DNA from: Cyanidioschyzon merolae
Lineage: Eukaryota
DNA length: 64,000 nt
NCBI GenBank assembly: GCA_000091205.1
Contig: AP006501.2
Direction: 5' to 3' (one strand)
Shown here in pieces: positions 1-55,010 of the stretch; position 1 is the first letter of the stretch, and the number at the start of each line of letters is the position of its first letter. The translations under genes were made by a program, and so were the position numbers. The notes beneath the pieces were generated by a model. The model did no database searches, was not told where the DNA came from, and worked only from the letters and a program-made list of their open reading frames with translations.

Positions 1-78
1 GCTGCTGCAGCTGGAGCTGCTGCCGCTACCGGGGCACCAGATACGGACCTTGTGGAACGAACGGATACGGAGACAAGG

Positions 79-1062
79 ATGGCTCTGCTCGATGAATTGC
101 GCCATGCACATGCCGCCGCCGCCGCTGCTACCAGCTCCAGCATGATTCATGGGCATCCCGTGCCCGCGACGGATCGCCGTTCGGTGAAGTACGGGCCGCA
201 CTGGCGATTCGCACCGCTTGCAGCCATTGCCGCGCACGCGCGCAGCCTCGCGACCCCTGGGGTTGTCACGGGAGTCGGCGAAACCGCATGCTCGACGCTT
301 TCGTTACTGAAACTGCTCGCGGAGGATACGAGGCGATTGGTTGACGAGATACTGATCCTAGCTTCTGGTACCGACGAAGCGGAAACAACAGAGCCGGCAA
401 AGCGCCTGCCCGATCGCGATACAACCACAGAGACGCTTGGACGCATTTTGCTTGCGTACGCACAGGCCTTGGTTTCTGTGGCGGAGGCGCAAGCAGGTTC
501 CGGAGAGTCGCAAAACACTGTGATGCATGACCTGGGAAAGACCGCTCTTCAGGCGCTGATCCAGGCTGAACGATCGGGTATTCGAGAACCCCATTTTCGA
601 CATGCACTCCGAACTTTGATCCGAGGCTTCGTACCCGCGACAGCATCAGCGGATTGTGTCGCTGCTATCAGCGCAATACTCGAAGAGCATCTTCCGAGCG
701 GACGCATAGAGCGAGAATCCCACCGCTTAGAGCTACTGTGTCAGGTGGTTACCCTGGGTCCGGATCTGCTTGCCCTAGCATCAGTATTGAGGCGTGCGAG
801 CCGTAACCAGACGTCCCACGTCCTGTCTGCGGTCGCGTGCCCTGACCTGAGGGCTCCTTGTTCTACCAAATGGTACAGGCAGGTCGTCCAGCTCTACGAA
901 ATCGGGGCCAGAACCATCGCGAATCAGCTAACTGGTTGTTGGCCGGCGGAAGACCTGCAGGAACACACCGCTGATTTCCTCGTCAACGGGGCGATGCAGT
1001 TGCCTTTGCTTTGTACAGGAAACCTATCAGAACACGATTCAACTGTTGCGCCTGTGAGATAG
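79..1062 (+). CDS. hypothetical Ala/Leu-rich protein; may be truncated by the window start
   Basis: Track ORF 52..1062 begins at GTG; first in-frame ATG at 79. No recognisable motif. Confidence 0.2.
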   Translation: MALLDELRHAHAAAAAATSSSMIHGHPVPATDRRSVKYGPHWRFAPLAAIAAHARSLATPGVVTGVGETACSTLSLLKLLAEDTRRLVDEILILASGTDEAETTEPAKRLPDRDTTTETLGRILLAYAQALVSVAEAQAGSGESQNTVMHDLGKTALQALIQAERSGIREPHFRHALRTLIRGFVPATASADCVAAISAILEEHLPSGRIERESHRLELLCQVVTLGPDLLALASVLRRASRNQTSHVLSAVACPDLRAPCSTKWYRQVVQLYEIGARTIANQLTGCWPAEDLQEHTADFLVNGAMQLPLLCTGNLSEHDSTVAPVR

Positions 1063-2501
1063 ATTCATACTGCCTGCTGTTTTCGCGAATGGAGGCAGTA
1101 TCGTGGACAAGTTGCCTCGTGTTGGCGCGTTCTGTGGCGGAGCGGACCACGCCACCACCAGGAAATCCATGATGACGCCCTATGGAGACCAACGGAGACG
1201 CCGCATCAACCCTCATGCGCAGACAAGGACGAAAACGATCCGAAGCGAGCGATAGGATGCACTGGTGGCGTCTGCTTGCGCGCCGTCTCCACCGGCCGCA
1301 TCACGTCGCCCGCAACAGAACACCGGTTGCAAGCATGGTTGCGCTTACAAGTCACCAGCGCGGGCCGCGCTGTGCTGTATGCCGCCTGTAGCCTGAGGCC
1401 GCTGCAGCCTCCGGTGCGCAGAACCCGAGCGATTCTCGAGAACTGCCACGTTACGCGGACACCCGTTTCTACTTTTCAGCAGAAGGACACACTCCCGACA
1501 GAACATAGCCTGGTACTTGGCGCCAGGGGCGTTGCAGCGACAGCAGCGCGGCGTCTCGCCTCGCCGTTGTGGTTGCTCGACAAGCAGAAGCGCACAGTCT
1601 GCGCAGATGCGAGCAGGTTCGAATAGCGCGTGCACTGCTTCACAAGTCACGCACTGACCGTCGCAGCGCGCACATAACAAGCCGACTTCACTGCCCTGTG
1701 TGCGGCCGCACTGAGCTCCGGTATGTTTCAGGGACATTTGCGGTGCGCTCGAGCGTCTCGCTTTCGCCTCCTGAGAACGCGACGGCCAACTGCACGCACA
1801 GTTCACAGGTTCAGACTCGTAGTTGTCGTGGGTTTCGTCAACTAAGCACCGCTGCGCCTTTAGACGGTGCCAGCGCGTCTCCAAAGCCGCCTAACGGGGA
1901 ACTCAGGAACCAGTTCGGTGTCAGACTTGGAGCAAAACTTTCAACCAGTGCGCTCGTTCCACACGTTGCAGTACCGTCAAATCAAAAGGTTGAGCACTGG
2001 CTTATCGGGTACGCTGAAAGACTCGGCTAGTCCAAGCGGACGCGTGTCTGCCAACGTAACACTGACTAGAACGCGGCCCTGTTTTGGTACTTGCTCCGGG
2101 GCTCGGTGGACCGCGATGGACCACGCGACGAGCGCGCTCTGGCAGGCAGCTGCACAGCGATGAAGTCAGAGGCCTGGGAACGCGCACAGCGCCGCGGAGT
2201 TAATCCGACGCGCGTCCGGAACGCCACAGCGCACCGTTTATGCCGCAAGTTGCAGAGCGCCTGCGAGCAGGCCGGCCCAATGAGCAGCTCGCCACAAGTC
2301 CATGAACTGAACGGGCGTTCAGCAGGCTCGGAACGTGCACAGCCTCCTGCTGTTGCGGATTCGACGTTAGCAAACGAGTTAGAAATCGACCAAAAGCCGC
2401 TTTACAACGAATGCACCGCATTTTCTGCATTTAGGCCCCGTTTCATGCCGTATATGTATGTCAACGCCAGTGCTTAGTCGCCGCACCGTCTCGGCAGCGT
2501 T

Positions 2502-3761
2502 TCAAGGTGATTCGGGTTCGGGTTCGGATTCGGGTTCCAGTTGCGCAACGATAACGCTCGCATCGTCACCCTTCCCAGGACAAACAAGTCTCGGCATGCG
2601 TTCCGATATGTAAGGATCGCAATTGGTGCAGCTGGAGAAGTTATGTGCGAGTTGTGCCAGTTGATAGCTTAACAACACTGGATCTATGTGGGTAAAGGTG
2701 CCCAAGCAGGTCCGATTCGCCACCGCCAGATTCGAATCATACGCAGAAGAGACCGGACACACCAGCGCGAGAATCTGGCTCTCACTGATATTATCGAAAA
2801 GGCCATCCGTCCCAAATATAACCGTATCGTACGCTCGTAGTCGGAACACGTCGAGGTAAATGGGCACCACATCACCCGTACACGTCTCGATCGTGATGCT
2901 GGTGCGTTGGGTTTCCGGATTCCCCTCGATGCCGTTGAGGCTCGAGAACACAATTGTTTGATCACGAATCACGAGGAACCCGATATTGCCTGTACGCACG
3001 GCATAGAGCAGATTCCCATTGTTTGCGAGACATGCCGCCAGCACCGACACCGAACGCACTGCTTCGGGCGGCCGCATATGCGTCACGGCATCACGGAGAC
3101 AGCTGAGTAGTTCGAAGCGTGGTTGCCAGTTTCGTCCTCGAGCGGTGTCTTGCTCCGATTCAGAAAAAAGCACCTGTTCAATGAACCCGTCTAAGATGTT
3201 GCGCACATGGTACTGCGCCGTGTACATATGCGCCAGTTCTACATCGCGCGTGTCCTTAATCGGTGCGAATGCCGCGCGAACAACACCACGCTCAGTGGCG
3301 TAGAGAACGTGACCGCAGTCCGCAAGGCCCACCGCGCCCTTCCCCTCGCAAACGAAGACCGTGTCCGTCGACCCCGAGAGAAGCAACGCCTCACCAGGAA
3401 ACGTTGTACCTTGTTCCGCACTAGGACGATCGCCGATGATCTGGTACGTTCCACACCGAAAGACGCACCGCTGCTCTGAGACTGCAAGCGGACGCTGCTC
3501 GTTGTGCGGCTCGCTCCGCAACGACAGTTTCGCCACGCCGCACCGCCGCTGTGCCTCGTGTGAGTGCTGACCGCGCAAACACCTCAGTGCAGACGCCGAC
3601 GAGAAGAGGCTTCCGCGATAAACACACGTGTTAATAACGAACTGCAACGGATTATCAGGTTCAACTGGCTGCCGCAACGAGCTTGGGGTTTCTTTGAACA
3701 GAGTGCCGCCTCGTTGCCTGCCGAGCGACCGCATGGCGAAAACGTACCGCCTGCTTGGCAT
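2502..3761 (-). CDS. PPM/PP2C-like protein phosphatase, divergent
   Basis: 419-aa ORF with an ATG start. PP2C-like blocks: LANNGNLLYAVRTGNIGFLVIRD (cf. VANVGDSRAVL), VIFGTDGLFDNISESQI (cf. LILASDGLWDV), C-terminal GKGDDASVIVAQL (cf. SKDNITVIVV). The N-terminal ~120 aa are not obviously PP2C. Confidence 0.4.
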   Translation of the reverse strand: MPSRRYVFAMRSLGRQRGGTLFKETPSSLRQPVEPDNPLQFVINTCVYRGSLFSSASALRCLRGQHSHEAQRRCGVAKLSLRSEPHNEQRPLAVSEQRCVFRCGTYQIIGDRPSAEQGTTFPGEALLLSGSTDTVFVCEGKGAVGLADCGHVLYATERGVVRAAFAPIKDTRDVELAHMYTAQYHVRNILDGFIEQVLFSESEQDTARGRNWQPRFELLSCLRDAVTHMRPPEAVRSVSVLAACLANNGNLLYAVRTGNIGFLVIRDQTIVFSSLNGIEGNPETQRTSITIETCTGDVVPIYLDVFRLRAYDTVIFGTDGLFDNISESQILALVCPVSSAYDSNLAVANRTCLGTFTHIDPVLLSYQLAQLAHNFSSCTNCDPYISERMPRLVCPGKGDDASVIVAQLEPESEPEPESP

Positions 3762-3872
3762 AGACAGTGACCGGAAAGCTGCACCGAAAACGCCGTTGTG
3801 CTCTTCTCGAGCCTGTGTTCCGAGACCTGCACGCCGCCTCCAACAAACGCCGTTCTAAAGAAAAGGCTGCTG

Positions 3873-6145
3873 TCACCAGTGGTACAGCAGTGGCGCGCCA
3901 CGCGCCCCCCAGACAAAACGTCTCGAGCAGATGCGCAGATGCCCTTCAGATTTCTTGAACCGGCCACCCAATACTGCTTCCAACTTCTTTTCATATAGTT
4001 CAACTTTGAGAGGTTGTCCAAGAAAATTTTCTCTTGACAGCTGTGGAGGTCGTTTCTCCAGCAGCGCACATTTCCTTATATTGATTGCGGCGTTAAAGTC
4101 ACGATTCACAAACTCCATATGTTTCTTGCCATTGGTAGTTGGACTCACTAGTGCAAGCAATCCACGAACTTTCGCCCTCCTTTTCATTTGCTCTTCCGTC
4201 AGCGGTCCGTACTTTTTTACATCCTCAGGGCTTCGCTGATATTTTTCCATCTCGACCGTCTGAAGTGTGCACCCCAGTTCATGGTGTGTATAGGACGTTC
4301 GGAACTCATCTGCAGGTATCGTAGCGAAGCTCCGTGCGCACTTCTTGTACGTTCTTGTTGTTGGAGCTGGCGTAGTTCCTTTTTTGGGTCCTCCATCGCC
4401 CTGCTCCGTATGCTACTACGAGCCTTTGACTTTCATCCTCCTTCAAGGCGCTCAACTGACTGAAAAAGTTGGCGACTGCAAGCCGCTTCCCACAATACAG
4501 GTTCATAAGCAGACGGGCCCATCGAGGCTTTGTATACTCCTCCCACAGCGCATCCCAATGAGCAACGCGAACTTCCATAAACTCCCGAAAAGCGTTAGAG
4601 TCCGCTCCTCGGGTCGTCACCTCGCTCAAAGCCTCCAGGTGCTCTTTCATTCCTGAATTCCATGTAATGATTTTCTTCCTTGCATTCATTACGCCGGATC
4701 CTCGGTAGTATCTCGCTCTCGAGAACCTCAACAGACGCATGTCTTTCTGACGTGAGTTGCCGTCAGTACCATCTTCCGCGCGCTTGGGAGCAGCGATGGT
4801 TACGATATTCGTAACCCCAGGGTCCGCGCCAACGACAAAGTCGTTATCCTGCACTTTCTGTGTGGCACAATCTGCCTCCTTCTCATCTTCATGCTTCGTC
4901 ACGGACACTATCGAAGACGGAACTGGACGATCCGCCTTCAAGCGCCGATAGTGAACACACATGGCTACTCCATCGGTTTCGATCACCCCTGTGAATACCT
5001 TTTGTTTGCTCACTTTCAGACTTGTGAAATCGAAGATATTCTTCCAGTACGTGTCCCGGTTTTCACCGGTACTCTCCTTCCTGCTGACATTAAACTCGGG
5101 GCTGAACTCCTTCATGATGCCGTAAAGGATTCTGGAATCGATAGTCACAAAATGTGACTCGATGTTGGACAACGGAACGACGTTGAAGCGCTTACCCAGA
5201 AGCGCAGCCTTTCGTCTCCCCCACTCTTCATTTTTTCCTCACTCAGCTTCATCTCTGCCTTGCGTTCGAGCTCACGGTCCAGAAACACAAAGTAACGCAG
5301 GACGTGGCGGTAGTATCTTTCGTTATCTTTTTTCAACTCTGATATGTTTGCTGCTCGGTTCGCCAACCCCAGTACCGCACGATGCTCTTGTATAGCCGCT
5401 CGGATGACGGAATCCTCATTCATGCTCCTGAGTGATTTCTTCTCGTCGATGAATTCAATCTCATCTTCATGCTTGCGATCGTTCGTGTTGCCATTGATAA
5501 TCGCCCATATCCCCTGGCGAATGAGACCGGGTAGAGTGCAAAGATGGAGCGTATCATGAAGTTCTTGAGGTTCATTGTTAAATGGTTCTTTAGACTGGTG
5601 AGGTAGTTCATCGCTCCGTAGGTGTAAATATTCGAATCCCCCCCTGTATCGAGTACCGTCGAAGCGGAACTCGGCGTAAATTTTGTGGAGGGCATGAACT
5701 CGCTCATTTCACCTAGACGTTTCACCGGTGCCAAGCATCCGGTGATGAAAAACGGTTTTGTTGAGAAAATCTTCCAGAATATGGACTGTTTTGATGTCCG
5801 TAACGTCATGATACCATTTTCTTAGGAAATCCACCATTCCTTGAGAAGCGTCACGAACACCGCTGGAGTTCGGCTCGACACGGTTCCAGATTGCCTCTCG
5901 AACGTTTTCCCTGTACGGATCCTTGGTATGTTGAAGAAGACAGGCTTTCACCGCCATCTCGTCGTACCGTCATCTTTTGCGTAGCCTTTGACGTAGGGCC
6001 TCCCGCTTTTACTTCTTCTTCTTATCCTGTTCCTTTGCACTTGGCACTGTTCTTCATTTTTTCGGGCTGCCGGCGACATTGGCGCCCAGGATCCTCCACT
6101 TCCCCTCCCGTAACTTTCCTTTTTCAATATAAAAAACCGAAACAA
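3873..6145 (-). pseudogene. Fanzor-type TnpB-like RNA-guided endonuclease gene with at least 4 frameshifts
   Basis: The reading frame switches between consecutive ORF segments. One example lies at 4250-4306: a third frame restores ...FRTSYTHHELGCTLQTVEMEKYQR. Catalytic-looking residues are retained. Confidence 0.65.
3876..6116 (-). mobile_element. Fanzor/TnpB-like element, copy A (~2.24 kb, degraded)
   Basis: Colinear ORF segments on the minus strand (5948-6145, 5709-5957, 5420-5809, 5145-5423, 4306-5172, 3873-4250) jointly encode a ~700-aa protein. It carries [12 protein letters not shown] (RuvC-I-like) and EFVNRDFNAAINIRKCA (the classical TnpB/Fanzor RuvC-III motif). Homology to copy B begins at ~6116 and ends just after the stop codon. 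Confidence 0.7.
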
Positions 6146-7199
6146 CTTTGGATGGTACAGCTATTACGCATAAAAAAGCACTTGAATACATTAGTGTGAA
6201 GGTTGAAACACGATTGAGGACAAACAATGGGCTTTTCTACGACTTGAAATCGTTAAAATTTGTACGATAGAGCTACATGCTTCATTTTTCCGATGGAAAA
6301 ACACTTACATTGACAATGGATCCCAGATTGTGCTATAAATGGGTATCGGATTTGGCGAAAGCATCCATCATGCTGCATTCTAACTCCAGATTCCATTACG
6401 TATACTTCCTTTCAGATGTACTACTCGTCTCGTGCTTCCTGTCATTCGCCGGGTGCATGCGTTGATGCACCCGCCTTAGCGTCTAATCCGCTGATGCCGA
6501 TGCATAACAGAGACAGGACAGCGTTGCCGTACTACTGAGGGCGTCGGATCGAGGAATGCTCCACCTGACACAGAGTCGGAGTATAGGATCATTCTGGGAG
6601 CCAGCAAGCTCCGCAGACAGACACACTGCCTGCGATAGCGTGAAGCTATATACCAGGACTCCACCGCGACCAGATCGACGCCCAGATGCAGTTTAACTGC
6701 CGCTAGTACCAGAATAAACAGTGCTGCAGACGAATTGCTCAGATTTCTATGCAGCACCCGCCACTGGGTGGCGAGCACGAAGCACGTGCCTGGGGTACTC
6801 GTCTGGCTCGCGGGTTTTTCCGTCGAGAAATTCAACTTTCGACAAAACGGGAACCGTGTTTCCTTTTTATCGTTTATCGTGCAGGGAAGATAAATTGGTA
6901 TATCGTTGCTAGTTAATGGTTAGTCTCTGTTCTTTGCTCTGTATGCTGCGGTCGGTTAGCGCGCCGGGGAGATCAGGTCGTACGAGACAAGACGCACGTG
7001 TCGCCGTTGAAAGGAAACGCGAAATTGTGAAAATCCGTTTTCTTATTGTTCTACCGTACAAGTTGTATTTGCGTTAAAGTCGTAACAAAGTAAAGTTGTT
7101 TCATGCAATTGTGTTTCAAACCTCAAGTAAGTGTATACAAATGATGTTTGGCAATTCAGATCAGAAGCGTCGAAAGAACCTTCTTCTTCTTCAAAAATA

Positions 7200-9416
7200 A
7201 AAAAGGTTATGGAAAAGAAACTGGAGGATCCTGGACATCTGGTGTCGTCGACTGCCGGAGACTGACGAAAAACATGGCGGAGCTAAAAGGAACATGAGAA
7301 GACGATGGAGCAAAAGAGGAAGGCCCGAGGTCAGAAGCTGAACGAACCACGACAGTACGACAAGATGGTGGTGAAAACCTGTCTTCTCGCACATATCAAG
7401 GATCCGTCCCGGCGAAGGCTGCGAGAGGCCATCAGAAACCGTATCGAGTCATACTCCATGAGTGTTATGATGGCTTCTGCAGGTATAATGCATTTGGTGA
7501 AGGAGATGCGCGACGACGTAACGGGCATCAAAACAGTCGAGGTTCTGGAAGAATTTTTCGGCAAAACCTTTATTCGTCACCTGATGCTTGGTACAGGGGA
7601 AACGTCGAGGAGAAATGAGCGGGTGCATGCCCTCTGCCAAAAATACTCCTTCTACAGCTCCAACGGTACTCGAGACAGGGGTGACTCGCATATTTACACC
7701 GTCGGGTTATGAAGCACCTCACGAACCTGAAGAACTATTTGACCATGAGCCTGGAACGTTTCATGATACGCGCCGTCTGTACGCGCTACCCGGGCCCCTC
7801 TCGCGAAGGGATATGGACCATCATCGACGGCATCACAAACGATAGTAAGAATGAGCAGGAGATCGAATTTGTTCACGGGAAGACATCACGCAGGAGAGCA
7901 AATGAGGATTCTGGAATCCGTGCAGCTATTAAAGAGCATCGTGTGGTCTTGGGGCTGGCGAGTCCAGCAGAAAAGATATCCGAGTTGAAAAAAGATTCGG
8001 AAAGATACGATCGCCTCATCTTGCGCTATACCATATTCCTGAACCGACAACTGAAATGCAAGACCGATATGGAGCAGGGTGTTGAAGCAAATGCAGTGTC
8101 GGAGAAACGGAAAGCTGCGCTTCTGGAGAAGCGCGTCAACGTCGTTCCGTTGTGCAACATCAAGTCACATTTTGTGAGTATCGACTCCGAAATCCCTTAC
8201 GGCATCATTACGGAGATCTGTCCAGTGTTCGATGTAAGCAACAAGCAGTTCACCGATGAAAACCAGGAGACGTACTGGAAGAAGAATATCTTCGATTCCA
8301 AACGTCTCAGAACGAGCAAGAAAAAGGAATTCACTGGGATGATCGAAAGTGATGCGATAGCCATGCGTGTACATTATCGGCGCTTGAAGGCGGATCGTCC
8401 AGTTCTGTCTTCGTTGCCGTCGCTGGCAAAGCGTGAAGAAAACAAAGAGGCTAGCCCAACGACGCAGGAGGTGCATGAGAACCACTTTGTCGTTGGCGCG
8501 GGCCCTGGGAACACGAATATCAGGACCATCACAACACGCAATTGCGGGGATGATGGCATCGACGACAACCTACGTCAAAAAACACATGCGTGTTTTAAAG
8601 CTTTCAAGAACGAGATATTACCGAGAATTCGGTGTGATGAATGCAAAGAAGAAAAGTGGGGCGTGGAACGCAGGATTGAAAGAGCACCTGGAAGCGATCA
8701 GCCAGGTGACGGGCCGGGGAGCGGACTTTCACGCTTTTCGGGAGTTTATGGAAGTTCGTGTTGCTCATTGCGAGGCGCTGTAGGAGGAGTATACAAAGCC
8801 CCGGTGGGCTCGGTTGCGTATGAATCTACACGGTGGGAGCCAGCGTGCGTTCGCGAGTTTTTTCAATGAATTGAACGTCTTGAAGGAGAGCGACAGTCAG
8901 AGGCTCGTACTAGCGTATGGAGCAGGGCGATGGAAGACCCGAAAAGGGTGTACACGAGCTCCAACTACAAGAACGCACAAGGAGTGTGCAAGGCGTTTCG
9001 TTACGATACCTGTAGATGAGTTACGAACGTCGTATACACACCATGAACTGGGTTGTACGCATCATAGAGTGGAGATGGAAAAGTACCAGTGAAGCCCTGA
9101 GGATGTAAAAAAGTACGGAGCGTTGACGGAGGAACAAATGGAAAGCAGGGCGAAAGCTCGTGGACTACTCGCATTACTGTGTACAAACAAAGATGGCAAG
9201 AAACGTATGGAGTTTGTGAATCGTGACTTTAACGCCGCTATCAATATAAGGAGATGTGCGGTGGTGGAAAGAAGACCTCCAGAGTGGACACGATAGAACT
9301 TTGTTGCGCAATCATTCAAACTGGAACTGTATGAGAAAAAGTTGGAGGCAGTAGTAGGTGGCCTGTCCAAAAAGGCTGGGAGGCGTCTGCACGTCAGCCG
9401 AAGACGATTTATCTAG
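7200..9416 (+). mobile_element. Fanzor/TnpB-like element, copy B (~2.2 kb, degraded), inverted relative to copy A
   Basis: ORF segments 7305-7712, 7709-8869, 8433-8783, 8814-9092 and a 9095-9416 frame are colinear with copy A at ~55-65% aa identity. RuvC-I reads [10 protein letters not shown] (D to G). The C-terminus reads MEFVNRDFNAAINIRRCAVV with in-frame stops (MEKYQ*, ...EWTR*). Confidence 0.7.
7305..9416 (+). pseudogene. Fanzor-type TnpB-like endonuclease gene, inactivated (frameshifts, stops, RuvC-I D to G)
   Basis: As above; the aligned sequence contains stop codons. Confidence 0.65.
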
Positions 9417-10217
9417 CGCGGGTTTCTCGCCACTACTGTACACGGCCGCCGGCGACGTTCGTCTTTTAGGGCGTTCCTTGTGTCGGCGATACCACGGACC
9501 AGCAGCAGGCGACCGCGCCCATCGCCCGAAAGAAGCAACCGGTTTCGCGAGCTGGACGCAGTACGGCGCTCTGCCCTGTGCGCCTTTTGTGGCTTTCAGG
9601 TACGCGGTCTACCGCTCCGGACACTGCTCCAACAGTCTGGCCGGTCCTTGATTACGACAAGTAGCGCTGAAAGCAAGCCTTTCGTGCACGGAAACTGAAC
9701 GCGAGTCGGAGCACTGTTCGTCACACAAGTGCTGGGTTATCCGTTCTCGTCCCTATCATAGACGTGTGTGTGTGGGCGTGCGGGTGGCTCCGCTTTGCTC
9801 CTCGAGATTTTCCCTTCCGTGAAACGGGGACGTGTCTGCAGGATTATGTGACGTACGCGAGTTTGATCGGAAGACAGTTACTGTCAGGAAAGCGCTGGCT
9901 GGAGCTGCCCGCAAGACGACTGGTCGCAGGAGGTGTTTTCGTGGTAAGCGTCACCCTCGCCGGCATCACGCTTTACCACGGGTGGTATTCCAACACACAA
10001 AGCATTCAAGACGATCATGTCCGGAATGGCTCTGTGGAGACGTGCGACTGCGCCCCGCTATGGAGATGCATGCAAGCGTTCGGTAGCGAGCACGCACCAG
10101 AGTGCGCAGCGGAACGAAGCAGCCTCCTGCGCTGCATGGCGCACAGCAAGCCTTCTACATCATAAACATGAAGGGGCACCATTGGCGGCCTTTATGTGAC
10201 TGTGCAAAGAAGTGACA

Positions 10218-10853: not shown

Positions 10854-11431
10854 TGATGGCGGTTCACGCCTCCAACAGGCACCCTTTTGGAGTCGACCTC
10901 AGTGCAGCAGCGTAGCGGTACCTGGGGGGGAGAATTCGCTGCACCCCACACAGGATTCCGTTGCGCGAGCTGTGCACGCACTTTGGCGAGCATTCGCGCT
11001 ACCTCGATGGCCAGCGCGCGCAACCGAAAGCGCAGCAGCGCCTCTGGCACGAATGGCGCCACCAAACTGCCTTCCGCAGCTTGCATGGTGGATGGTGTCG
11101 GATTGTCCAGGTTATGCGCTTATGCTAATGTGCGCGACGCGCATCGGCATCAAGGGTACCTTCTGGGCGCAAGGTCCAGCGAATCGGATACGCATACGGG
11201 GCCAGTGCGCTTTCTGCGCCTACCCACTGTGGTGGGTGTCAAGCACAAACCCGCATTGCCAACCGACAACAGCGCATTCCATGCATGATCACGAAGGAGA
11301 GCGGCGGCTCCCAGCATTCATCCTAACAGCCAAGTTTCTCCAGCGTGTCGTTCAGCAAAGGCAAGCCTGCATCCGCAGACTGTCCGAGCACATACCGACG
11401 ACGAGACCCGATTCTACGTCGGGTGAAGCAC

Positions 11432-11750
11432 GCCTCAAGCCGACGCCCTCTCGGGTATAGAAAAGCTGTTCTAGCTCTATGAACTATCTGCTCTAGCATT
11501 TAAGGTCCAAAGGCGGATACGGAACGGCAGGCACTAGGCACACCCGATGGGACGTATGAAACGGCCGGAATATCCGAGAAGAGGTATCGGTAATGTAACT
11601 TGGAGGTTCGGGGGTTTGATGGACACCTTACCGCCCACTGAAAAAAACCACAAAAAAAGTAAGAAACAAATGCGCTTAATCGGAGAACGCTGGCCGAAGT
11701 AAACGTGTTGTCAGTGAAAAAAATCCGAACGTGCTGCTGTGGTGGCATAT
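11432..11750 (+). repeat. dispersed ~320-bp repeat R1, copy 1
   Basis: Colinear with 18490-18808 at ~80% identity, from agccgacgccct...ctagctctatgaactatctgct through an A-rich tract to gctgctgtggtgg. Followed by an AT-rich 50-bp patch. Confidence 0.7.
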
Positions 11751-15204: not shown

Positions 15205-16019
15205 GGCCCTGCACTGACCCAGCATCCGGACGCAAATAACCAGTGCCGAGAGGTGTACTCGTCGTTGCTGCGACTCCTGAACTTTTCCAGACGATCTAGC
15301 ATATCGCGGATGACACTGAATGCAGGCGAGAAGCTTCCCGTGATCAAGTCTAGAATTCGCAAAACCTTTTCATTGCAAGCAGCAACATGTCATAATGTTG
15401 CACGAGTATAACCATCGGTTTTCGTATTGCAGCGCACGAGGGACGACGACCCGTCCGCCCAGGAGGCTTGCGGGCACGCTGCTGCGATCGCTGGCTCGCT
15501 CCTGGTGCTCAACGCGAGCGCCCCGGATTCTCCATATGTGTGGGATCACGAGCGTACCCAGTCGCTCGTTTCCTGGATGAAACGTGTGTGCACGAAGCCG
15601 CGCTCTCTGTGGTCGAATTCGCTACCTTAACCGTTGGCAGCGAAACCACCAGCTCGATACGTGTACTGAACTCACCGGTGTCGTGATGAAAACGCATTTT
15701 ACGAGTTTTCGAGGGTTTGTGCAAGCTCGCACACCCTCGACAGCAAATGCTCGTTACCGATCATGCTTCGGATCACAACATGGATACGTTCAGCGTGCTT
15801 CTACGCTAGATGCCGCCTTTCTTCATCTGGATCGCCGCTTACACATGCGGGATATTCGGCCAAGGACGCCCGCATCGCGAACCCTGATCGCTCCAACTTG
15901 GTATCATGTATGTTCAATAGAGCGAAAACGTTTCGCAACCATGTAGGTTCAATGAATACCCAGGCGCAGACGCCTCCCAGCCTGTTTTGACCAGCGGCCT
16001 GCTATCGGTTTTGATTTAC

Positions 16020-16215
16020 CCAGGTGCACCTGTAGTCTGGGAGGCTGCCCACAAAGTTGGATCGCGTCAGTTCTGCGGATCTGGCCTTCAGCACCGCACA
16101 TCGTCTGATATTGATGGTGGCGTTGAGGTCTCGGTTCTTGATCTCCTTGCGTGCAGTGCCACTGGTTGAACGCACGATTGCAAGAAGTTTTAGAACTCGT
16201 GCTCGCTGTGCCACT
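16020..16215 (-). mobile_element. solitary internal fragment of a Fanzor/TnpB-like gene (RuvC-III region)
   Basis: The minus-strand ORF encodes ...RARVLKLLAIVRSTSGTARKEIKNRDLNATINIRRCAVLKARSAELTRSNFVGSLP. This matches RAKVRGLLALVSPTTNGKKHMEFVNRDFNAAINIRKCALLEKRPPQLSRENFLGQPL from copy A. It is more diverged than the other copies. Confidence 0.55.
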
Positions 16216-16861
16216 AGAGGCTCGCCTATCCAACACCTCTTCTTCTGCTTCTTCGTCGTCGTCGCTTGTGCTTCTTCTTCGCTCGATCGTCAGCAAGAAG
16301 AGGATTTTTCGGCAGCGGACGATAACGGCCCTTCAGGATCCCCGACTTTCACGCCCATAACTTTCCCTTGCACTCCTTATTTCTTCAAATGAACACACCT
16401 TGAATGCATCAGCGCTAACCAGCGAGACAGCCTTTGATGAAACGCATCTAGGGATTGGAAAACAATTCAGGAGCATGTCAAGGACACGACGATGCGGGAA
16501 TCGCGCAGGCATCGATCGGGCGACGCAGGCGGGTGCACACGCTCCAGTTCACACTGAAACGTAGGAGCAGGCGGTTGAAAGGCCCTCGCGTGGGCAACAA
16601 CGTGCTCTGCGTTGCTTCGGTGGCGTTCATAGCAAGCTGTTCAGGTACGGGGTTTGTGAGGTCTGGCTTGGCCCAGGTGTGAGCAAGCTCTGCTCATAAA
16701 CGTTATCTGTAGTCGGTACGAAGACGATGTTCTTGAACGCAGGCTGTGTGCCACGTCGTAGTGGGCCTGGGTCTCAGGCACGCCCCGTACGAGGTCTCGG
16801 ACGTGAACGCAAGCTGCGCTGGAGCGCCCGGTTCGCGAGGCGACGAGTGGCGTTTCTTGAC

Positions 16862-17122: not shown

Positions 17123-18489
17123 CTTGTCGCTCTGTAGACCAGGACTCAGAAAAGGATCAAGGCCCCTGGGCGTTTAGATATGCGTCTGCCCAGCATCCAA
17201 GAACAGACTTGATCGGTGAGCAACAAATGCTCGGCGATACTGCGGAGATATTCTGTGCTCCTGTCGCTTGGTGCGCACCGCTCTAGGCCGCCTGAGCGTT
17301 GCAGCGTCCAGATTGTCTGGGGCGCGCGTCAGGCACTGCTGGAAGACCCGTACCAATGCCCTGCGAGCTGGTAGGCTGACACCATCCCTGCTACAAGAAT
17401 GATGATATCAAGCATGATGCGTACCCAGCGTTTCTCTCGCTCAGACGCTAGCATGAAATATGGCTGAAACGTAGAACAAGCATGCGAATATCTCCGCGAG
17501 ATTTGCGTAAAGGAAAACGCTATGCGCTCTGACGAACCAGAATGGCACTCGAGCTGAGCATTCCCTGACGCCGTGACGGACGGTGCTCGGTGGACCAGTT
17601 CGGTACGCGATCAATGGGCAGGCAAGTCACCCATCTGGTGGTGATGTCCTTGCGTTGCGGGGTGGTCGCAGCTGCCCAAAGTGCAAAATCCACTCTGACC
17701 TGGTTTGGACTTGCTCGGAAAGGCGCTCCCACAGAGCACATGCTGTTTTGTTCTCGAGTTGCAGCAAACACCGGCGTGCTCCTGTAATTTGAGGGCAAAC
17801 GCTCCGTTGTCAGCAGTTGCCGCGCTAGCGTCACGCGGTTGCGAACGAAGGCTGGTTTCCAGTCAGGCCGATCCCGAGGCTGCCTCGCAAACTTGGTACC
17901 ACGACGAGTACGCACGATCTGAACATTCAGGCGCATTCTGGATTTCGAACCTGTCCAAGTCGGTGGTGCAGAGCAGACTACACGGACGCGCACCCACAAT
18001 GAGGCCGGCTGCCGGGAGCTCAGTCTCTCTGCTTCCGCAAATGCAGCCGCGCTGCCCTCGCCTCCCGGAGCGCCTCGCTGCCCTGTGGAACAGAGCCATG
18101 TACGCACCGGCGACGTTTCTTACGCCAAAACTTTCCGAATTGTTGACGACTATGCACAAAGTGCGCCACTGCACCCGCCACGCGGCGGCGACACGGGCAC
18201 GTCAGCCACAAAGAACCCGTAGCGTGCTTCGCCTGGATGCCTGCCGCCGGTACCTGGATATCAAGGCCTCGTCGATACCGCGCCAAGCGTTAGCGGTGCG
18301 CTTAGCACGCATCGATTCGTTCAATGGATACAGATCCAGATCCGTAATACAGTACCCAGCATGGTACATATCCTAGCGCTGGAGGAGGCGCTCACGTCTC
18401 AAGTTGTCGCGCGCCCGCTCATCATATTCAGGCAAAGCGGCCTGTAACGGCGCTGTGATCGCAAAATGCGCATACAGGAATCGCTACCC

Positions 18490-18808
18490 TCGAGCCGACG
18501 CCCTTTGTGCGGTACAGCAACGCAGCGCTAGCTCTATGAACTATCTGCTCCAGCGGTTCAGGCGCAAAGGCGGATACGGAACAGCAGGCACTAGGCACAC
18601 ACGAGAGGACGTGAGAAACGACCAGAATATCTGAGAAGAAGTATAGGTAATGTAACTCGGAGGTAGGGAATTCGGTGGATACTTCACCGCGCACTGAAAA
18701 AAAAACAGAAAAAGAAAAGAAAGGAAAAAGCGCGTAATCAGAGAACGCTGGCCTAAGTAAACGTTCTGTCAATGAAGAAAAATCGAAATCGCTGCTTGCC
18801 GGTGGGCG
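18490..18808 (+). repeat. dispersed ~320-bp repeat R1, copy 2
   Basis: See copy 1 (11432-11750). Confidence 0.7.
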
Positions 18809-29346: not shown

Positions 29347-29598
29347 CTATACCCGCGTAGCGGCTGGTGCACAGACCGGAACCGCTCTGCTGGGACACCA
29401 CGCCTCTACGTCATAGATGACCCGGATGCGAAGCGAGCACGACGGGCACTTGGCAATCTGTTCCCCACGCCGCATTTCTGCGACTGTGAGAACGAATAGG
29501 TCCCCACACGGGCAATTGTACGTGTACCTCTGGGCATCTTCTTCATAGTTCATATCTTCGATCTCGACTTCGTCGTATACATTAGTCTCTGTTTCCAT
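29347..29598 (-). CDS. DPH3: diphthamide biosynthesis protein 3 (DPH3/KTI11, CSL zinc finger)
   Basis: METETNVYDEVEIEDMNYEEDAQRYTYNCPCGDLFVLTVAEMRRGEQIAKCPSCSLRIRVIYD matches DPH3 YDEVEIEDM...FTYPCPCGDRF...CPSCSL.IKVIYD. Start set at the internal ATG 29598; the track ORF extends to 29748 into transposon-derived sequence. Confidence 0.8.
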   Translation of the reverse strand: METETNVYDEVEIEDMNYEEDAQRYTYNCPCGDLFVLTVAEMRRGEQIAKCPSCSLRIRVIYDVEAWCPSRAVPVCAPAATRV

Positions 29599-29749
29599 TC
29601 CCTGGTCGTTATCCACGAAGCGTTCGCTCGAATGACGCACCCGGTGAATGCGAAGACAACCCTGAAAACAAACCCCTTTCAAAAGAAAAACGTTGCTGCC
29701 AACGGTGTACGGTAGTGGCGACCAGCGCCTAAGCCTTGACGTCTCCAAC

Positions 29750-30200
29750 TGACGTGTAGACGCCTCGCCGTCTTTCTGGACCGGCCGCCTACAACTGGTT
29801 TCAATTGTTTCTCATATAGTTCCACTTTGAGAGGGTGTCCCACAAAGTTCACTCTTGTCCACTTTGGAGGCTTTTTCTCCATCATCGCACATCTCCCTAC
29901 ATTGATTGCTGCGTGAGAGTCTCGGTTCGCAAATTCCATACGTTTCTTGCCATCACTGGTAGTACTTACTAGTGCAAGCAAACCACGCACTTTCGCTCTC
30001 CTTTCCATTTGATCTTCCGTCAGCGCTCCGTACTTTTTTATATCCTCAGGGCTCCGCTGGCACTTTTCCATCTCCACTCTCTAAAGAGTACACCCCAGTT
30101 CATGGTGTGTATAGGACGTTCGGAAAGCATCTACAGGTATCGTGACGAAACGCCGTGCACACTCCTTGTGCGTTCTTGTCGTTGGAGCTGGTGTACACTC
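29750..30200 (-). mobile_element. 5'-truncated Fanzor/TnpB-like 3' fragment (zinc-finger region + RuvC-III + 3' end)
   Basis: Minus-strand frames give ECTPAPTTRTHKECARRFVTIPVDAFRTSYTHHELGCTL then MEMEKCQRSPEDIKKYGALTEDQMERRAKVRGLLALVSTTSDGKKRMEFANRDSHAAINV...RRLHVSWRR. These are colinear with the copy A/B C-termini. Confidence 0.7.
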
Positions 30201-30552
30201 CAGAGGGTGGAGATGGAGAAATGCCAGCGGAGCCCTGGGGATATAAAAAAGTACGGAGCGCTGACGGAAGGTCAAATGGAAAGGAGGGCGAAATTTCGTG
30301 GATTGCTTGCATTAGTAAGTACAACCAGTGATAGCAAGAAACGTATGGAGTTTGTGAACCGAGAACTTAACGCGGCAATCAAGGTAGGGAGTTGTGCGGT
30401 GATGGAGAAAAGACCTCCAGCGTTGACCAGAGAGGATTGTATGGGGCAACCTCTCAAAGTGGAACTATTTGAGAAAAAAATGAAACCAGTAGTAGCTTGG
30501 CGGCCCAGAGAGGCTGGGAGCCGTCTGCACCTCAGCTGGAGACGATTTGTCC
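30185..30552 (+). mobile_element. 5'-truncated Fanzor/TnpB-like 3' fragment, inverted partner of 29750-30200
   Basis: The plus strand encodes VEMEKCQRSPGDIKKYGALTEGQMERRAKFRGLLALVSTTSDSKKRMEFVNRELNAAIKV...SRLHLSWRRF, ~80% aa identity to its minus-strand partner. The junction lies at ~30184, where homology switches strand. Confidence 0.7.
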
Positions 30553-30642
30553 AAGGCGCGTTCGCCGCCACGACTACACACCGCTGGCGGCAGCGGTTCT
30601 CTTTTGAAAGGCGTTATCGGACTAGCCTCTGATTCATCAAGG

Positions 30643-31440
30643 ATGGTGCTGTTTGAAATTGAATATCGAGTGCGGCTTCCTCGGGAGGAGATGTGGAGCC
30701 TGCGAGAAGACCCTGAGTTTTTGCGTTGGCAGTATGAGCACTCCTCCGATATGAGCAACCTGGAAATTGTGGAGAAAAACGTCGACGCAGCCGACCCCGA
30801 CCGCATAACCGTGACGTGGCGGATAACACCTAGCGTGCCGCTGCCGCAGTTTGTACTTGCGTACGTTGGCGAAGGTGCTGGCATCTACATCGAAGACGTT
30901 CACGAATACCGCCTGTCGAAGCCGTACTACATCAACTTCCGCAGCCATCCGAATATGTTTCAGGAGTACACCGAGACCAGGGGTGAGTGCGAGTTCGTTG
31001 ATGAACCTGCTGACTCCGCGGATGCCCAGGCTGGAACACGCGTCTGCATCCGAGGAGAGGTGATTGTGAACGTCCCGCTTGTGGGGCCTTACGTCGAAAA
31101 CTTCGTGGTGAATAACTTGCGGAACTTTTACACGGGGTTTCCAGACCTGGTGCATTCATATGTAGCGGCCAAAAATGGACGTTTGAACCCCGACGACAGT
31201 CAGATGTGGTTGAACCCGGAGTCATCGGTGCATGTACAACCGAATACCGCAGAGGCAAACGAGGCGAGTGCCATCCACGGGGCTGGCGCGGATGTGGCCC
31301 CTGCTCTGGCGGCTCTGCAGCGCTCGCTACCGCCATCGGTCGACGCGTCACTGGCATCCGTGCCAGTGGCTTCTGGCGCCCCTGAAGCGATCCCAGAGTC
31401 CATACAAGCGCCAAGAAGATCATGGTGGCCATGGCAATGA
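30643..31440 (+). CDS. hypothetical protein
   Basis: Track ORF starts at TTG 30547 inside the transposon fragment; first ATG is 30643 (MVLFEIEYRVRLPREEMWSL...). No confident family assignment. Confidence 0.35.
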   Translation: MVLFEIEYRVRLPREEMWSLREDPEFLRWQYEHSSDMSNLEIVEKNVDAADPDRITVTWRITPSVPLPQFVLAYVGEGAGIYIEDVHEYRLSKPYYINFRSHPNMFQEYTETRGECEFVDEPADSADAQAGTRVCIRGEVIVNVPLVGPYVENFVVNNLRNFYTGFPDLVHSYVAAKNGRLNPDDSQMWLNPESSVHVQPNTAEANEASAIHGAGADVAPALAALQRSLPPSVDASLASVPVASGAPEAIPESIQAPRRSWWPWQ

Positions 31441-32228
31441 ATTGCGTACCCGCCGGTGCCTTGTGGTGCCTCTGAAGTGGCACCAGAGACCGTGCACGTC
31501 CCAAGCTGATCACGCTGACCATGGCGCTGAACAGGCGGCGCAAGCCACCGTTTGAATCGATTGTCGTGGTATCATGCATACATGACGCAATATTTATTGG
31601 GGGCAATCATCGAAATGTGAACGAGAGTATTGGGCTACTCGCGTGCTTGTGGAGCACCAATGCGCAGAACTCTTGGAGATGGGACGGTGCGAATCAGAGG
31701 CTCTCCATTGTAGCGTATGCTCTGCGAAGGGTTGATTCCGCTTGCGATTCCCGAGCTGCGAGCACCAAGTACCCTGATGTACGCTATTGCTTAGGCGGGG
31801 AACGGGAGCGTTCACTCGTCGTCGAAGCGAATTCTCCCGCGACAAAGATGAGTATTCGCATGGAGCGCGCACCGCGAGTCGCCTGCGCAGTCTGTATGCC
31901 GCCATCCTGTCCCCGGAGGATCAACGAAAGCGCGAACCACCAGCAGTTCAGTCAGAGACGTCATTACCATCGAGCTGGGGTTTAAGAACGCACGAGAAAT
32001 CGTTCCAGCGATCGAGCGCGTGTTTCTCGGGGGAGATGTCTGGAAACGTCAAGAAGAGGAAGGCTTCACGCACCACGGCACGTCATTCGCTCCCAGGCTG
32101 CAATGTCTTCATGATGCCCCGAAGTGCGCGTCAGTTCGCCGGATACCGGTGTCGCTCATGACCTGGGGAACGATTCCTCGCCGCTGGTGGTGCCCATGTG
32201 GCCACGAGTTGTGCGGCTGTTTCAGGAA

Positions 32229-32302
32229 CAACGTAACGCAACGCAACGTAACGTAACGCAACGTAACGTAACGCAACGTAACGCAACGCAACGTAACGCA
32301 AC
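32229..32302. repeat. (AACGY)n pentanucleotide microsatellite, ~15 units
   Basis: caacgtaacgcaacgcaacgtaacg... read directly. Confidence 0.9.
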
Positions 32303-33755
32303 TGCGCATTCTCGAGCGCGTATGGTGAAGGAAGCGAGCTGTTGCGTGACAGCGCCTGCCGCGTACCCTACGCTGTCGCGACCCTGAGCCTTGTTCAAGT
32401 CTGGAGAACGTGCGCGTCGCGAAACGAGCGGCCAGATGCAGTGCGACCTGTCGCGCTCGCAATGTCGTGCTGTGGTTATCAGCGGATATTGACGCGAATG
32501 CCACGGCATTGTAGCGGCGTCTCTGTAAACCATACGGCCGCTCGTCGGCTGCAGTACGTGCTTTATTCTGCCACGGACGCGTGCTTGGTGCAAGCCAGCG
32601 TGTTCTTATACAGACCAGTTCATCCACAGAACAAGGGTGATGCATGTTTCGATTTGAGTTTTGATATCGCTGACCATTGGGGGTATGCTTCCCGAAACGG
32701 TCCCTGTGTCATGCAGGTTTACGCCCGCCTGACGACCCGGTGTTCGCACCGCACTGCGACCAAACGCGCGGCTCCATCAGCTTGTCTGGCATCACTCAGA
32801 AGCTGGACGAGGCGGCCTGGCGGGCGCGTTCGTGGCTTGCGTCCCCGGCGCAGCTGCTCAACTAGATTGCAGCGCATGCGGGCATGCACGACGTCCGCGC
32901 TCTCTTGTTACGCACACTGGGAGCCAGGTATTCGCAAGAGCTCACGCGAGTGGCGGGCGCGCTTGGTGTTTGGCGCGTAGCCGAGCGCTGCACCTATGCC
33001 CCGGGGCTTACAAAACGCATATCTGTGACCTAGCTCTGCAGCAATGCTTCTCACGGTGAGCCGCGTGGATCATAAAAAGTGTCGTTTTTGATTGCCCTGT
33101 CATCCGCGAAAGCAGCATGTTCAAAGCTTATTGAATCCTGGAAGCGACTGTTCTCGGAAACTGATGTTTCATCTCGAATCACCGGCGGCAGCGGCAGCGG
33201 TATTGCCTCGAGCCGTCACCTCGCCAACGCGTCGAAGAGCCGGTCGGCCGCAGAGCATTGAACGCGGCAACAATTGTCGTGCGAAACCAAATGCCAACGC
33301 TAGACACCGTTCAGCAGCTCTGTCTCTGGGGGGATCAACTGCGACGCGGGCGTAGCCCGAGTCACGCCACGCTTCTGGAACATGTTTGATGCCCCGAACG
33401 TCGCTAGATCGAATCAACTTGTATTCCTTCGGGAAACACATCCCGGTCGATTATGGTATGCAGATGCGTATCTGGATAGGCTGGGGTATCTTTCATTTCC
33501 TCTAGGAGCAGTTATGTATCCACGAGAAGCCTGATAAGATTCATCGATCTCACACCATGAAAAATCGACAAGCTTGGCACCCAGCAGTGCACTGTACGGA
33601 CTCTCGCTGCCCACCAAACAGGAACACTCGTCTGGGGCTTGCGGAAAATACAAGCGCCTTGTGAAGCTACAGCATTTTCCATCCGCAGGATAGGCAGCAC
33701 CTGCACATTCCACTGCGTACTCGCACTGCACGCATCGATCATGCATCATGCATCG

Positions 33756-53114: not shown

Positions 53115-54309
53115 ATGGATTCGGGACCAAGCAGTTAAATGGCACAACTTGCCTAGCGAGGCGTCCAGCGTTTCGTGCCAGAGACGGTGTAGGCGGTGCT
53201 CGTGCTCGTTACCTGCAATCACAGGTTTCGGATCAAGTGCAAGCGGTGGACGCTGGACCAGCGAGGCGTGGCGTTTACGTCATTTCCATGTGCCGACGCT
53301 GCGTGATACGAAAAAAACAACAGCATCGCCAGATGGTGCGCGTTTTTGGCGCGAGATAAGGCTCTTCCCCGGAACGCAAATCCTATTTCTCACAGGGCAT
53401 CTCCGCAGCTGGTGCCGATTCGAAGAGACCTTCATCCGCCAGCAGCCAAGGGTGCCGAATCGCGACTCCAAAACCCCCTGCTGGGTATTAAGTCGTCGGC
53501 GCCTCGCTGGACGCCTCATGTGCGCATCCGTTTCAGACTGCCTCCCGATGCCGAGCACGTGTCAGCGCGCATGCCACACGGAGCTGGCTTGCCTCTATCG
53601 GAACCAAGAAGTCGACTGCGACGGTCGCATACGGTCGAGGTGCATCTGGCAATCTTCTCGTTGGCGCATTGCCCGAGAAGCGGCTGAGAAGCACCGCCAC
53701 GAACGTCAACGAGGTCTTCCACTTGATTCTGGTTCTCGTTGCAGTGCGCGCATGCCACTATGGAGACAAGAGAACCGGCCCTTGCTTCCAGAGGGAATCC
53801 GCATAAGGTTTGCTGCTTTGGTGCAGCGTCATCTCAAACGCTCACGAATACGCTTTCTCAACGGGGTAATCGGGGATGAGGATCCTAGATACCGCCTGAT
53901 CTCCGGGCCGAGGTTCGCATACCTCGAGCGATTCCTGGAGCTGCCGCTCTGCTTGTAGGCACAGTGCGAGGCAAGCTGCTGCCATGATAAACGTAATCCC
54001 GATAGGTAGTGCCGCCGGATATGACCCTAAACGAAGTGTGTGTCTTTGTGGGTGCGCGGAGATTGGGCTACTCGTTTGTTGAAGCGGATGCGTGTCAACC
54101 AGCATGGATGCAGTTCCATCGGTGTGAGCTGGAGTGTGCAAAACACCGCATAGCCATTCCGTATCCATACAGCAGTAGCAGCAGCAGCAGCAGCAGCAAT
54201 CGTCAGTGAAAGAAAAAACTGTTTTTACGAACACGGACGGTAAATGAATATCAATATATGGACGCCTCCTAGCCGTTTTCGACCGGCCCCCTGTTATCGG
54301 TTCCAGTGT

Positions 54310-54480
54310 ATCCGCTGTACACCACGAGCCTGAGAGGTTGTGCGATAAAGTTAGATCACGTCAGCTCTGCGGCTCTCGTCTCCAGCACAGCATACTGCCT
54401 GATACTGGTAACAGCGTTGAATTCTCGGTTCACGAGCTCCTTGGGTTTATTGCCTCTGGTTGAACACATCCGTGCATGGA
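54310..54480 (-). mobile_element. solitary diverged fragment of a Fanzor/TnpB-like gene (RuvC-III region)
   Basis: Minus strand encodes ...RGNKPKELVNREFNAVTSIRQYAVLETRAAELT*SNFIAQPLRLVV, colinear with GKKHMEFVNRDFNAAINIRKCALLEKRPPQLSRENFLGQPLKVEL. The listed plus-strand ORF 54306-54512 is its antisense frame. Confidence 0.5.
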
Positions 54481-55010
54481 TCACTAGATCTCGTACCCTC
54501 TGTGCCACTTAAGTCTAGCCTACTTCCCTCTTCTTCTTCATATCACTCGCTCTTCTTCGCTCGATAGTTGGAGCGAAGCGAATTTTTGTCGTTGTTTTCC
54601 GGCACCCGGCGAGGAAGGCACTCCAGGAGCCCCGACGCTCACGTTCATACCTCTGTATTTTTATTTCGTTACATGAACGCACTTTGAACACACCTGCTCG
54701 ATACCACGAAAAAGCACATTCTTCCACGCACCTGAGGCTCAATCATAATCGGAATGAAAGATGCTATGCAGCGCTCATATCCCGCTTTACGTATGAAACG
54801 TTGCCCGTCGTAACGCGGGCTGTACGATGAGGGCGCTCGACGCGGGGCACACGCGTCAGGCGCGTGCAGCACCATCGTGAACAGTTAGGGTTTGGCTGTT
54901 TTCGCTGACGTACCATACGAGAACGTTTGGGATCAGAGGCTTGACTTGGCCTAGACTTTGGCTTGAGATCCGCACGCGTTGCGGAGCACCATTACAATAG
55001 TTACGTCGTT

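Follow-up and report, generated by a model that had tools for sequence, protein, structure and literature searches.

A head-to-head dimer of CMe-1A Fanzor1 relics occupies most of the spacer between DPH3 and CMS026C in Cyanidioschyzon merolae and brings transposon ends close to both start codons

The divergent genes DPH3 and CMS026C of Cyanidioschyzon merolae 10D lie in a 64,000-nucleotide stretch of contig AP006501.2 (assembly GCA_000091205.1), here referred to as the window, and are separated by a spacer of 1,044 bp, 941 of which (90%) are derived from CMe-1A, a transposon of the Fanzor1 group. The reading that we favour, at a probability of roughly 0.55, is that the spacer represents a lineage-specific insertion of a dead CMe-1A dimer of the snap-back type, and that the core promoters of both genes are located at, or inside, the outward-facing transposon ends.

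The outer limits of the spacer (29599-30642) are the two start codons. DPH3, a CSL zinc-finger protein of 83 residues, is encoded on the minus strand (29347-29598) and matches Pfam PF05207 (E=1.9e-23) over residues 9-63, beginning at profile position 1. On the plus strand, the 265-residue product of 30643-31440, a DUF2505 / SRPBCC-like protein (PF10698, E=3.4e-11), corresponds to the annotated CMS026C protein at 100% identity and 100% coverage. DPH3 orthologues from two related loci (L002 and L004) open at the equivalent methionine, with MDTEIDVYDD and MDAEFDVYDD as against METETNVYDE, and equivalent methionines also begin the CMS026C orthologues. Judged by annotation and orthologue starts, the chosen ATGs of both genes are sound. 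The same ATGs had been selected in the original prediction, made from the DNA alone, and its proviso that the true starts might lie elsewhere is excluded by the CMS026C annotation and the orthologue starts. Its remark that the open reading frames (ORFs) of both genes run back into transposon sequence applies to the frames 29347-29748 and 30547-31440, which are indeed in the ORF list, but only by virtue of TTG starts admitted by the bacterial-code rule; the first ATG is the supported start in each case.

Within the spacer, a repeat search detected two inverted arms, 370 nt long at 83% complementarity, with a 58-nt outer extension, and BLAST of the spacer against the window returned the self-inverted match at E=0, along with two more copies, one near 3.8-4.4 kb and the other near 8.9-9.5 kb. 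The inverted pair of Fanzor fragments formerly placed at 29750-30552 is therefore real and far above chance, but its true span is larger, from 29673 to 30613. These boundaries were obtained by mapping the published CMe-1A consensus (supplement of Bao & Jurka 2013) and by analysis of the junction. The left arm, on the minus strand (29673-30198), is a 5'-truncated copy corresponding to consensus positions ~2641-3169 and is 86.4% identical to the consensus over 523 bp (BLAST match of 2645-3167 on 30195 down to 29675). The right arm, on the plus strand (30184-30613), is likewise 5'-truncated, corresponds to consensus 2739-3169 and is 85.2% identical over 431 bp (2739-3169 on 30185-30613). The two arms meet in a junction of 15 bp, GGAGCTGGTGTACAC (30184-30198), which matches both simultaneously and includes the palindrome GTGTACAC (30191-30198).

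At their outer ends, 29673 and 30613, both arms stop at the exact 3' terminus of the family (GAAAGGCG, then TT), the flanking sequences being unrelated, and each 3' end points to the adjoining gene, as had been proposed. No direct repeat indicative of a target-site duplication was seen by eye at the two outer boundaries of the dimer, where the flanks read ...CAAA and TTATCGG...; the copies in it share the family trait of having neither terminal inverted repeats nor, as checked by eye, an evident target-site duplication. The native remnants, previously put at about 90-150 bp, had been overestimated: consensus mapping leaves 74 bp on the DPH3 side (29599-29672, minus strand) and 29 bp, or 27, on the CMS026C side (30614-30642, plus strand). 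The former may amount to only 61 bp, as the 13 nt that border the left arm (29660-29672; TTTGTTTTCAGGG as reverse complement) may still be element DNA; the motif TTTGTTTCCAGGGG directly follows the CMe-1A 3' end at five other loci. If this 13-nt 3' extension, common to other copies, is counted, the transposon share rises to 956 bp (92%).

Only the last ~140-175 Fanzor1 codons are retained in the arms. The left one holds C-terminal codons that include the zinc finger and the RuvC-III motif, the latter degenerate (NRDSHAAINV), contains an in-frame stop, has lost the native stop codon and ends in the 3' untranslated region with its predicted terminal hairpin. In the right arm the RuvC-III motif is likewise degenerate (NRELNAAIKV), the native stop has become a glutamine codon, and the terminal sequence is GAAAGGCG. 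Truncation, degenerate RuvC-III motifs and the loss of the native stops, together with the in-frame stop of the left arm, indicate that both arms are dead.

CMe-1A was described by Bao & Jurka (PMC3627910) as a Fanzor1 element of C. merolae with a consensus of 3,169 bp encoding a protein of 734 residues, present in about 150 copies, each ~80% identical to the consensus, without terminal inverted repeats and with undeterminable target-site duplications. The match to this consensus, and that of the encoded peptide to the published CMe-1 protein, identify the family of the dimer as this known, old element. Papers on the C. merolae genome (cited in PMC5405695) probably refer to it as the "WSV repeat", since Bao & Jurka list a Fanzor1 in the white spot syndrome virus. 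Direct sequence searches with the reconstructed 714-residue Fanzor pseudo-protein proved unusable: Pfam returned nothing, and matches in the PDB were at chance level or marginal (a pilin at E=0.26 and, with a family profile, an IscB RuvC-I stretch at E=0.04). Family identity was accordingly taken from the published consensus and from a fold search. One homologue gave a sub-threshold match to PF07282 (E=0.0047), and the RuvC motifs GADPG and NRDFNAAINI, degenerate in both spacer arms, are visible in full copies. The AlphaFold model of an intact metagenome homologue, P0047, is weak, with a mean predicted local distance difference test score of 54, and below 50 in the RuvC half; its six PDB matches at E <= 0.001 are exclusively Fanzor1 proteins (SpuFz, GtFz and PpFz; E 4e-6 to 8e-5, ~560-780 aligned columns, TM ~0.3). 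Given the weak model, this fold evidence may be taken as supportive of the Fanzor1 assignment.

The comparison with orthologous loci that had been suggested as a check gives a consistent picture. The gene order Vps52-ProRS-DPH3-DUF2505-CBS-BRK is kept both in Cyanidiococcus yangmingshanensis and in a relative from a metagenome (loci L002-L006), where the DPH3-DUF2505 spacers measure about 920 and 730 bp. Neither of these spacers shows any similarity to the arms, at the DNA or at the protein level. As the relatives keep the gene order with spacers unrelated to the arms, the insertion of the dimer is lineage-specific and occurred in the Cyanidioschyzon lineage. Upstream of DPH3 and CMS026C no recognisable conservation with Cyanidiococcus was found, and no native promoter motif could be defined.

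What these boundaries imply for transcription can be judged from the size of an RNA polymerase II pre-initiation complex, whose footprint extends roughly from -45 to +20 around the start site. The 29 bp on the CMS026C side are too short to hold a core promoter together with a leader, so the promoter or leader of this gene overlaps the transposon: either transcription must start inside the arm, or the initiation complex must sit on it. For DPH3, a fully native core promoter within the 74 bp is just possible; the geometry suggests that transposon DNA probably serves as promoter and leader sequence, at least passively, for this gene as well. The original prediction had asked whether the host promoters sit in the native remnants or are supplied by the transposon ends. 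This was the right question, and the corrected boundaries tilt the answer towards the transposon, but we infer both the start positions and any promoter activity of the ends from this arrangement. As of 2025, neither a TATA box nor a transcription start had been mapped in any of the endogenous promoters of C. merolae (PMC12770821). Look-ups in transcript contigs for the exact proteins of DPH3, CMS026C and the TTG-extended CMS026C ORF retrieved none, and the sole C. merolae match, a Logan contig of 3 kb for ProRS, stops within DPH3 and is uninformative on start sites.

The closeness of CMe-1A 3' ends to start codons extends beyond this locus. It was evaluated in a sample of 79 related metagenome loci, a non-random set taken from the 80 best C-terminal matches and representing environmental relatives rather than strain 10D, with ORF-based gene calls and with random placement on the same contigs, using the same gene calls, as reference (n=14,380 intergenic placements). 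Among the 53 distinct 3' ends located, 48 have a callable downstream ORF, 33 of these being followed by a same-strand gene. A same-strand first ATG lies within 130 bp downstream of the 3' end in 19 of the 48, as against 8.9% of random placements (p=1e-8); when only non-negative distances are considered, which drops five ATGs located inside the element end, the figure is 14 of 48 (p=5e-5). There is no enrichment for the opposite orientation (5/48) or for the 5' ends of the element (2/18). Pfam domains are recognized in 15 of the 19 downstream ORFs, including FtsZ, DnaJ, M13 peptidase, bicarbonate transporter, PI4-kinase, phosphoglucomutase, HIT and PTH2. In the C. merolae window itself, a same-strand ATG follows three of the four 3' ends at a distance of 29-86 bp (p=0.003). 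The proximity of 3' ends to start codons is thus a family-wide tendency, more frequent than expected. It could reflect preferential integration before start codons, or survival of those copies whose 3' end supports downstream transcription. Tentatively, and less probably than not, the CMe-1A 3' end may carry an outward promoter, or integrate in sense orientation just upstream of starts, and may in this way have rewired promoter-proximal DNA in dozens of Cyanidioschyzon genes, with DPH3 and CMS026C as a double case brought about by a snap-back dimer.

Comparison of about 50 CMe-1A 3' termini showed that the last ~20 nt form a terminal hairpin, which occurs in two sequence versions, CGTTTTTC-TTTT-GAAAGGCG and CGTCGTTCGA-CTT-TCGAACGGCG; the corresponding regions of the spacer arms are 29673-29734 and 30552-30613. 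Nearly all the 3' ends are followed by TT, and no target motif beyond this dinucleotide was found after the terminus in this set. A further stem, GCCGCCA...TGGCGGC, with seemingly compensatory variants, lies upstream of the terminal hairpin. By analogy with TnpB and Fanzor systems, an outward guide RNA would be expected at the 3' end; we make no claim for an omega-RNA in the arms. A candidate match to the Rfam plant microRNA precursor MIR394 (30043-30241) was discarded, since it scored 24 bits against a gathering threshold of 60 and merely mirrors the hairpin potential of the dimer centre.

As to the origin of the dimer, its 15-bp junction sits on an imperfect inverted repeat native to the interior of CMe-1A, the two halves of which are consensus 2641-2655, reading GTGTACGCCAGCTC in some copies, and consensus 2739-2755, reading GAGCTGGGGTGTACAC. 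This points to a single event as the most likely origin, namely a snap-back during replicative copying from the 3' end. A strand copying CMe-1A inward from its 3' end would switch to the complementary strand at the internal inverted repeat and return along it to the 3' end. One arm of such a product would start from 2739 and the other from 2641, with an intact 3' terminus facing outward on each side, which is the structure observed. Such a dimer would then have inserted in a short bidirectional promoter, leaving about 100 bp of native DNA. As both arms run precisely up to the terminus of the element, with unrelated sequence beyond it, formation during transposition is indicated, and an in-situ fold-back of the replication fork was rejected on the same grounds.

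Head-to-head arrangements are common in the family, accounting for 11 of the 13 CMe-1A pairs less than 50 bp apart in the metagenome loci, or for about 7 of 9 when duplicate loci are left out. One identical dimer junction, located at the internal palindrome GGCTTCGCCCGTGGCGAAGC, recurs at no fewer than five loci, that is, at least five, with different neighbouring genes. The shared junctions are 2110/2093 (L037, L055, L057 and L083) and 2140/2093 (L041, L043, L045 and L068). Corresponding arms are ~82-97% identical between loci, while the two arms of L037, the one dimer tested, are ~74% alike. Since the same junction recurs beside different genes, dimers with shared junctions seem to have spread as units. 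The 2641/2739 junction of the DPH3-CMS026C spacer was not seen among the 79 loci.

Three other accounts of the spacer have to be weighed against the reading of a snap-back dimer with transposon-borne core promoters. The arms might stem from two independent insertions, one before each of the divergent genes, followed by deletion of both 5' parts and of the native DNA between them. CMe-1A does tend to sit before genes, of which a divergent pair offers two, and the left arm shares 85.2% identity with the copies of L010 and L015, but only 82.2% with the right arm. The deletion ends would, however, have had to fall exactly on both halves of the native internal inverted repeat; abutting head-to-head pairs recur in the family, some with junctions identical across loci; and the arms are more alike than independent copies should be, with an identity of 82% to each other, compared with 76-78% to the other window copies and with the about 73% expected, by our own arithmetic, for independent copies. 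We consider two insertions very unlikely. A different account concerns the site of integration: CMe-1A would be copied in, 3' end first and always in one orientation, where the DNA is broken or nicked just upstream of a start codon, and transcription of the host genes would depend on elements farther away or of recent origin. A copying process that begins at the 3' end would fit the enrichment of this end alone, and not of the 5' end, near start codons, as well as the frequent 5' truncation, the junctions at microhomology or internal palindromes, and the lack of terminal inverted repeats and of a determinable target-site duplication (PMC3627910; none evident by eye here). Against it, no target motif beyond the TT after the terminus has emerged, the tolerance of the genes to the loss of their upstream DNA is left unexplained, and the copies are old, ~15% diverged from the consensus, which has given selection time to filter them. 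As an explanation of the locus, it strikes us as quite unlikely.

The transposon may, finally, be a neutral filler that adds nothing specific, with native promoters persisting in the remnants and transcription starting within the 74 bp of DPH3 and the 29 bp of CMS026C. Very short promoters and leaders are frequent in compact genomes, and in related contigs 15 of the 45 transposon-free divergent spacers do not exceed 200 bp; with short spacers so frequent, an insertion into one of 100 bp would place both transposon ends near the ATGs without any special property of the ends. The 3' ends of the arms are not better conserved than the rest (76-94% per 50-bp window), and therefore give no hint of a promoter kept under purifying selection. 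Both observations count against the assignment of the core promoters to the arms, as do several others. The repressive histone mark H3K27me3 is borne by about half of the C. merolae transposons; if it also covers the spacer, it would fit poorly with promoter activity there. A conserved structure that would point to an expressed omega-RNA is likewise not convincing: the consensus computed by RNAalifold for 28 3' ends was weak, at -5.8 kcal/mol and with no covariation, single folds of the arms were no better than those of shuffled sequences (z-scores +0.97 and -1.22), and no Rfam family was matched in the arms. A start inside the 29-bp remnant would nonetheless still put the pre-initiation complex on transposon DNA, and a neutral filler does not predict a family-wide, orientation-specific excess of 3' ends before start codons; if anything, a depletion would be expected. 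For these reasons we regard neutral filling as unlikely, and retain core promoters at or inside the ends of a snap-back dimer as the favoured reading.

A second head-to-head CMe-1A pair is present in the window at 3848-9467, as defined by consensus mapping, in its low-GC part (0.48-0.49). It consists of copy A on the minus strand (3848-6281, consensus 735-3169) and of the full-length copy B on the plus strand (6291-9467, consensus 1-3161), both frameshifted, which abut with 9 bp between them (6282-6290); the full-length copy is 82.8% identical to the consensus over 3,186 bp. A gene encoding 419 residues (2502-3761), for which no Pfam match was found, is read from the same strand as copy A, and its ATG at 3761 follows the 3' end of this copy at a distance of 86 bp, in the same layout as at DPH3 and CMS026C. 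Two minus-strand fragments, 11407-11607 and 18488-18667, match consensus ~84-282 alone; the 5' part of CMe-1A is common to a separate element, TE-N2_CMe (PMC3627910). Relics of ~70% identity, also on the minus strand, at 15966-16425 and 54261-54759, are more diverged, correspond to consensus ~800-970 and ~2850-3084 and may belong to an older or a different subfamily.

Some features of the family consensus were also noted. In metagenome loci L034, L063, L017 and L052/L065, the first ~620 bp of the consensus, that is the TE-N2 part, are inverted beside Fanzor copies beginning at ~640-670, and many CMe-1A copies begin at consensus ~648-672. From these copy starts and the inverted TE-N2 part, the consensus of 3,169 bp, as published, may combine two elements. 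At consensus 2117-2196, a 75-80 bp in-frame tandem repeat (1-5 copies) lies within the Fanzor ORF, just upstream of the GADPG motif of RuvC-I; it is present in many metagenome copies (L009, L011, L016, L017, L027, L033 and others) and appears in protein P0005 as repeated KHEE...QEVQDNDF blocks. Outside the spacer, an AACGY pentanucleotide run (AACGT/AACGC) of about 95 bp lies between CMS026C and the following genes (32220-32314).

The spacer arms, 85-86% identical to the published CMe-1A consensus and with the same 3' terminus, are old copies like those already described (~80-85% to the consensus), from which they differ in retaining just the last ~430-530 bp and in being joined head to head. 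Bao & Jurka 2013 report neither such dimers, nor a junction on an internal inverted repeat, nor the tendency of 3' ends to be located just before start codons. The locus may be compared with promoters derived from long terminal repeats, miniature inverted-repeat transposable elements (MITEs) and other transposon fragments, in which a lineage-specific fragment likewise fills the promoter-proximal region with its outward ends by the genes; here the donor is a Fanzor1 element, and the promoter role is deduced from geometry. Foldback and MITE-like elements, and the defective genomes produced by snap-back (copy-back) synthesis, are similarly built from a single terminus present twice in opposite orientation, with an internal palindrome at the join. 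The dispersal of dimers sharing a junction, other than that of the present locus, to at least five loci in related genomes is a further point of comparison with foldback and MITE-like elements, while the dimer differs from these in showing no evident target-site duplication and in having arms from the 3' end of an element devoid of terminal inverted repeats. With L1 retrotransposons, and with twin priming, CMe-1A shares common 5' truncation, microhomology at junctions and inverted segments arising from copying that begins at the 3' end. The segments inverted by twin priming are, however, adjacent parts of L1, whereas both CMe-1A arms are the same 3' terminal region, and the CMe-1A dimer involves neither reverse transcriptase nor poly(A).

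Taken by itself, the locus is a transposon relic in promoter DNA, from a described family, and an event of a commonplace kind; what deserves further work is the association of the family with start codons, together with the snap-back dimers. The genome of C. merolae is among the most compact in eukaryotes and can be edited by homologous recombination, and the locus provides a natural experiment, in which a housekeeping gene is left with 74 bp, and its neighbour with 29 bp, of native upstream DNA. We know of no recognisable transposase in Fanzor1 elements, and the excess of 3' ends before starts, the 5' truncations and the spread of snap-back dimers represent testable constraints on how these elements move and choose their targets. 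If it is true that the arms drive transcription, they would provide a link between a transposon end expected to encode a guide RNA and the regulation of host genes.

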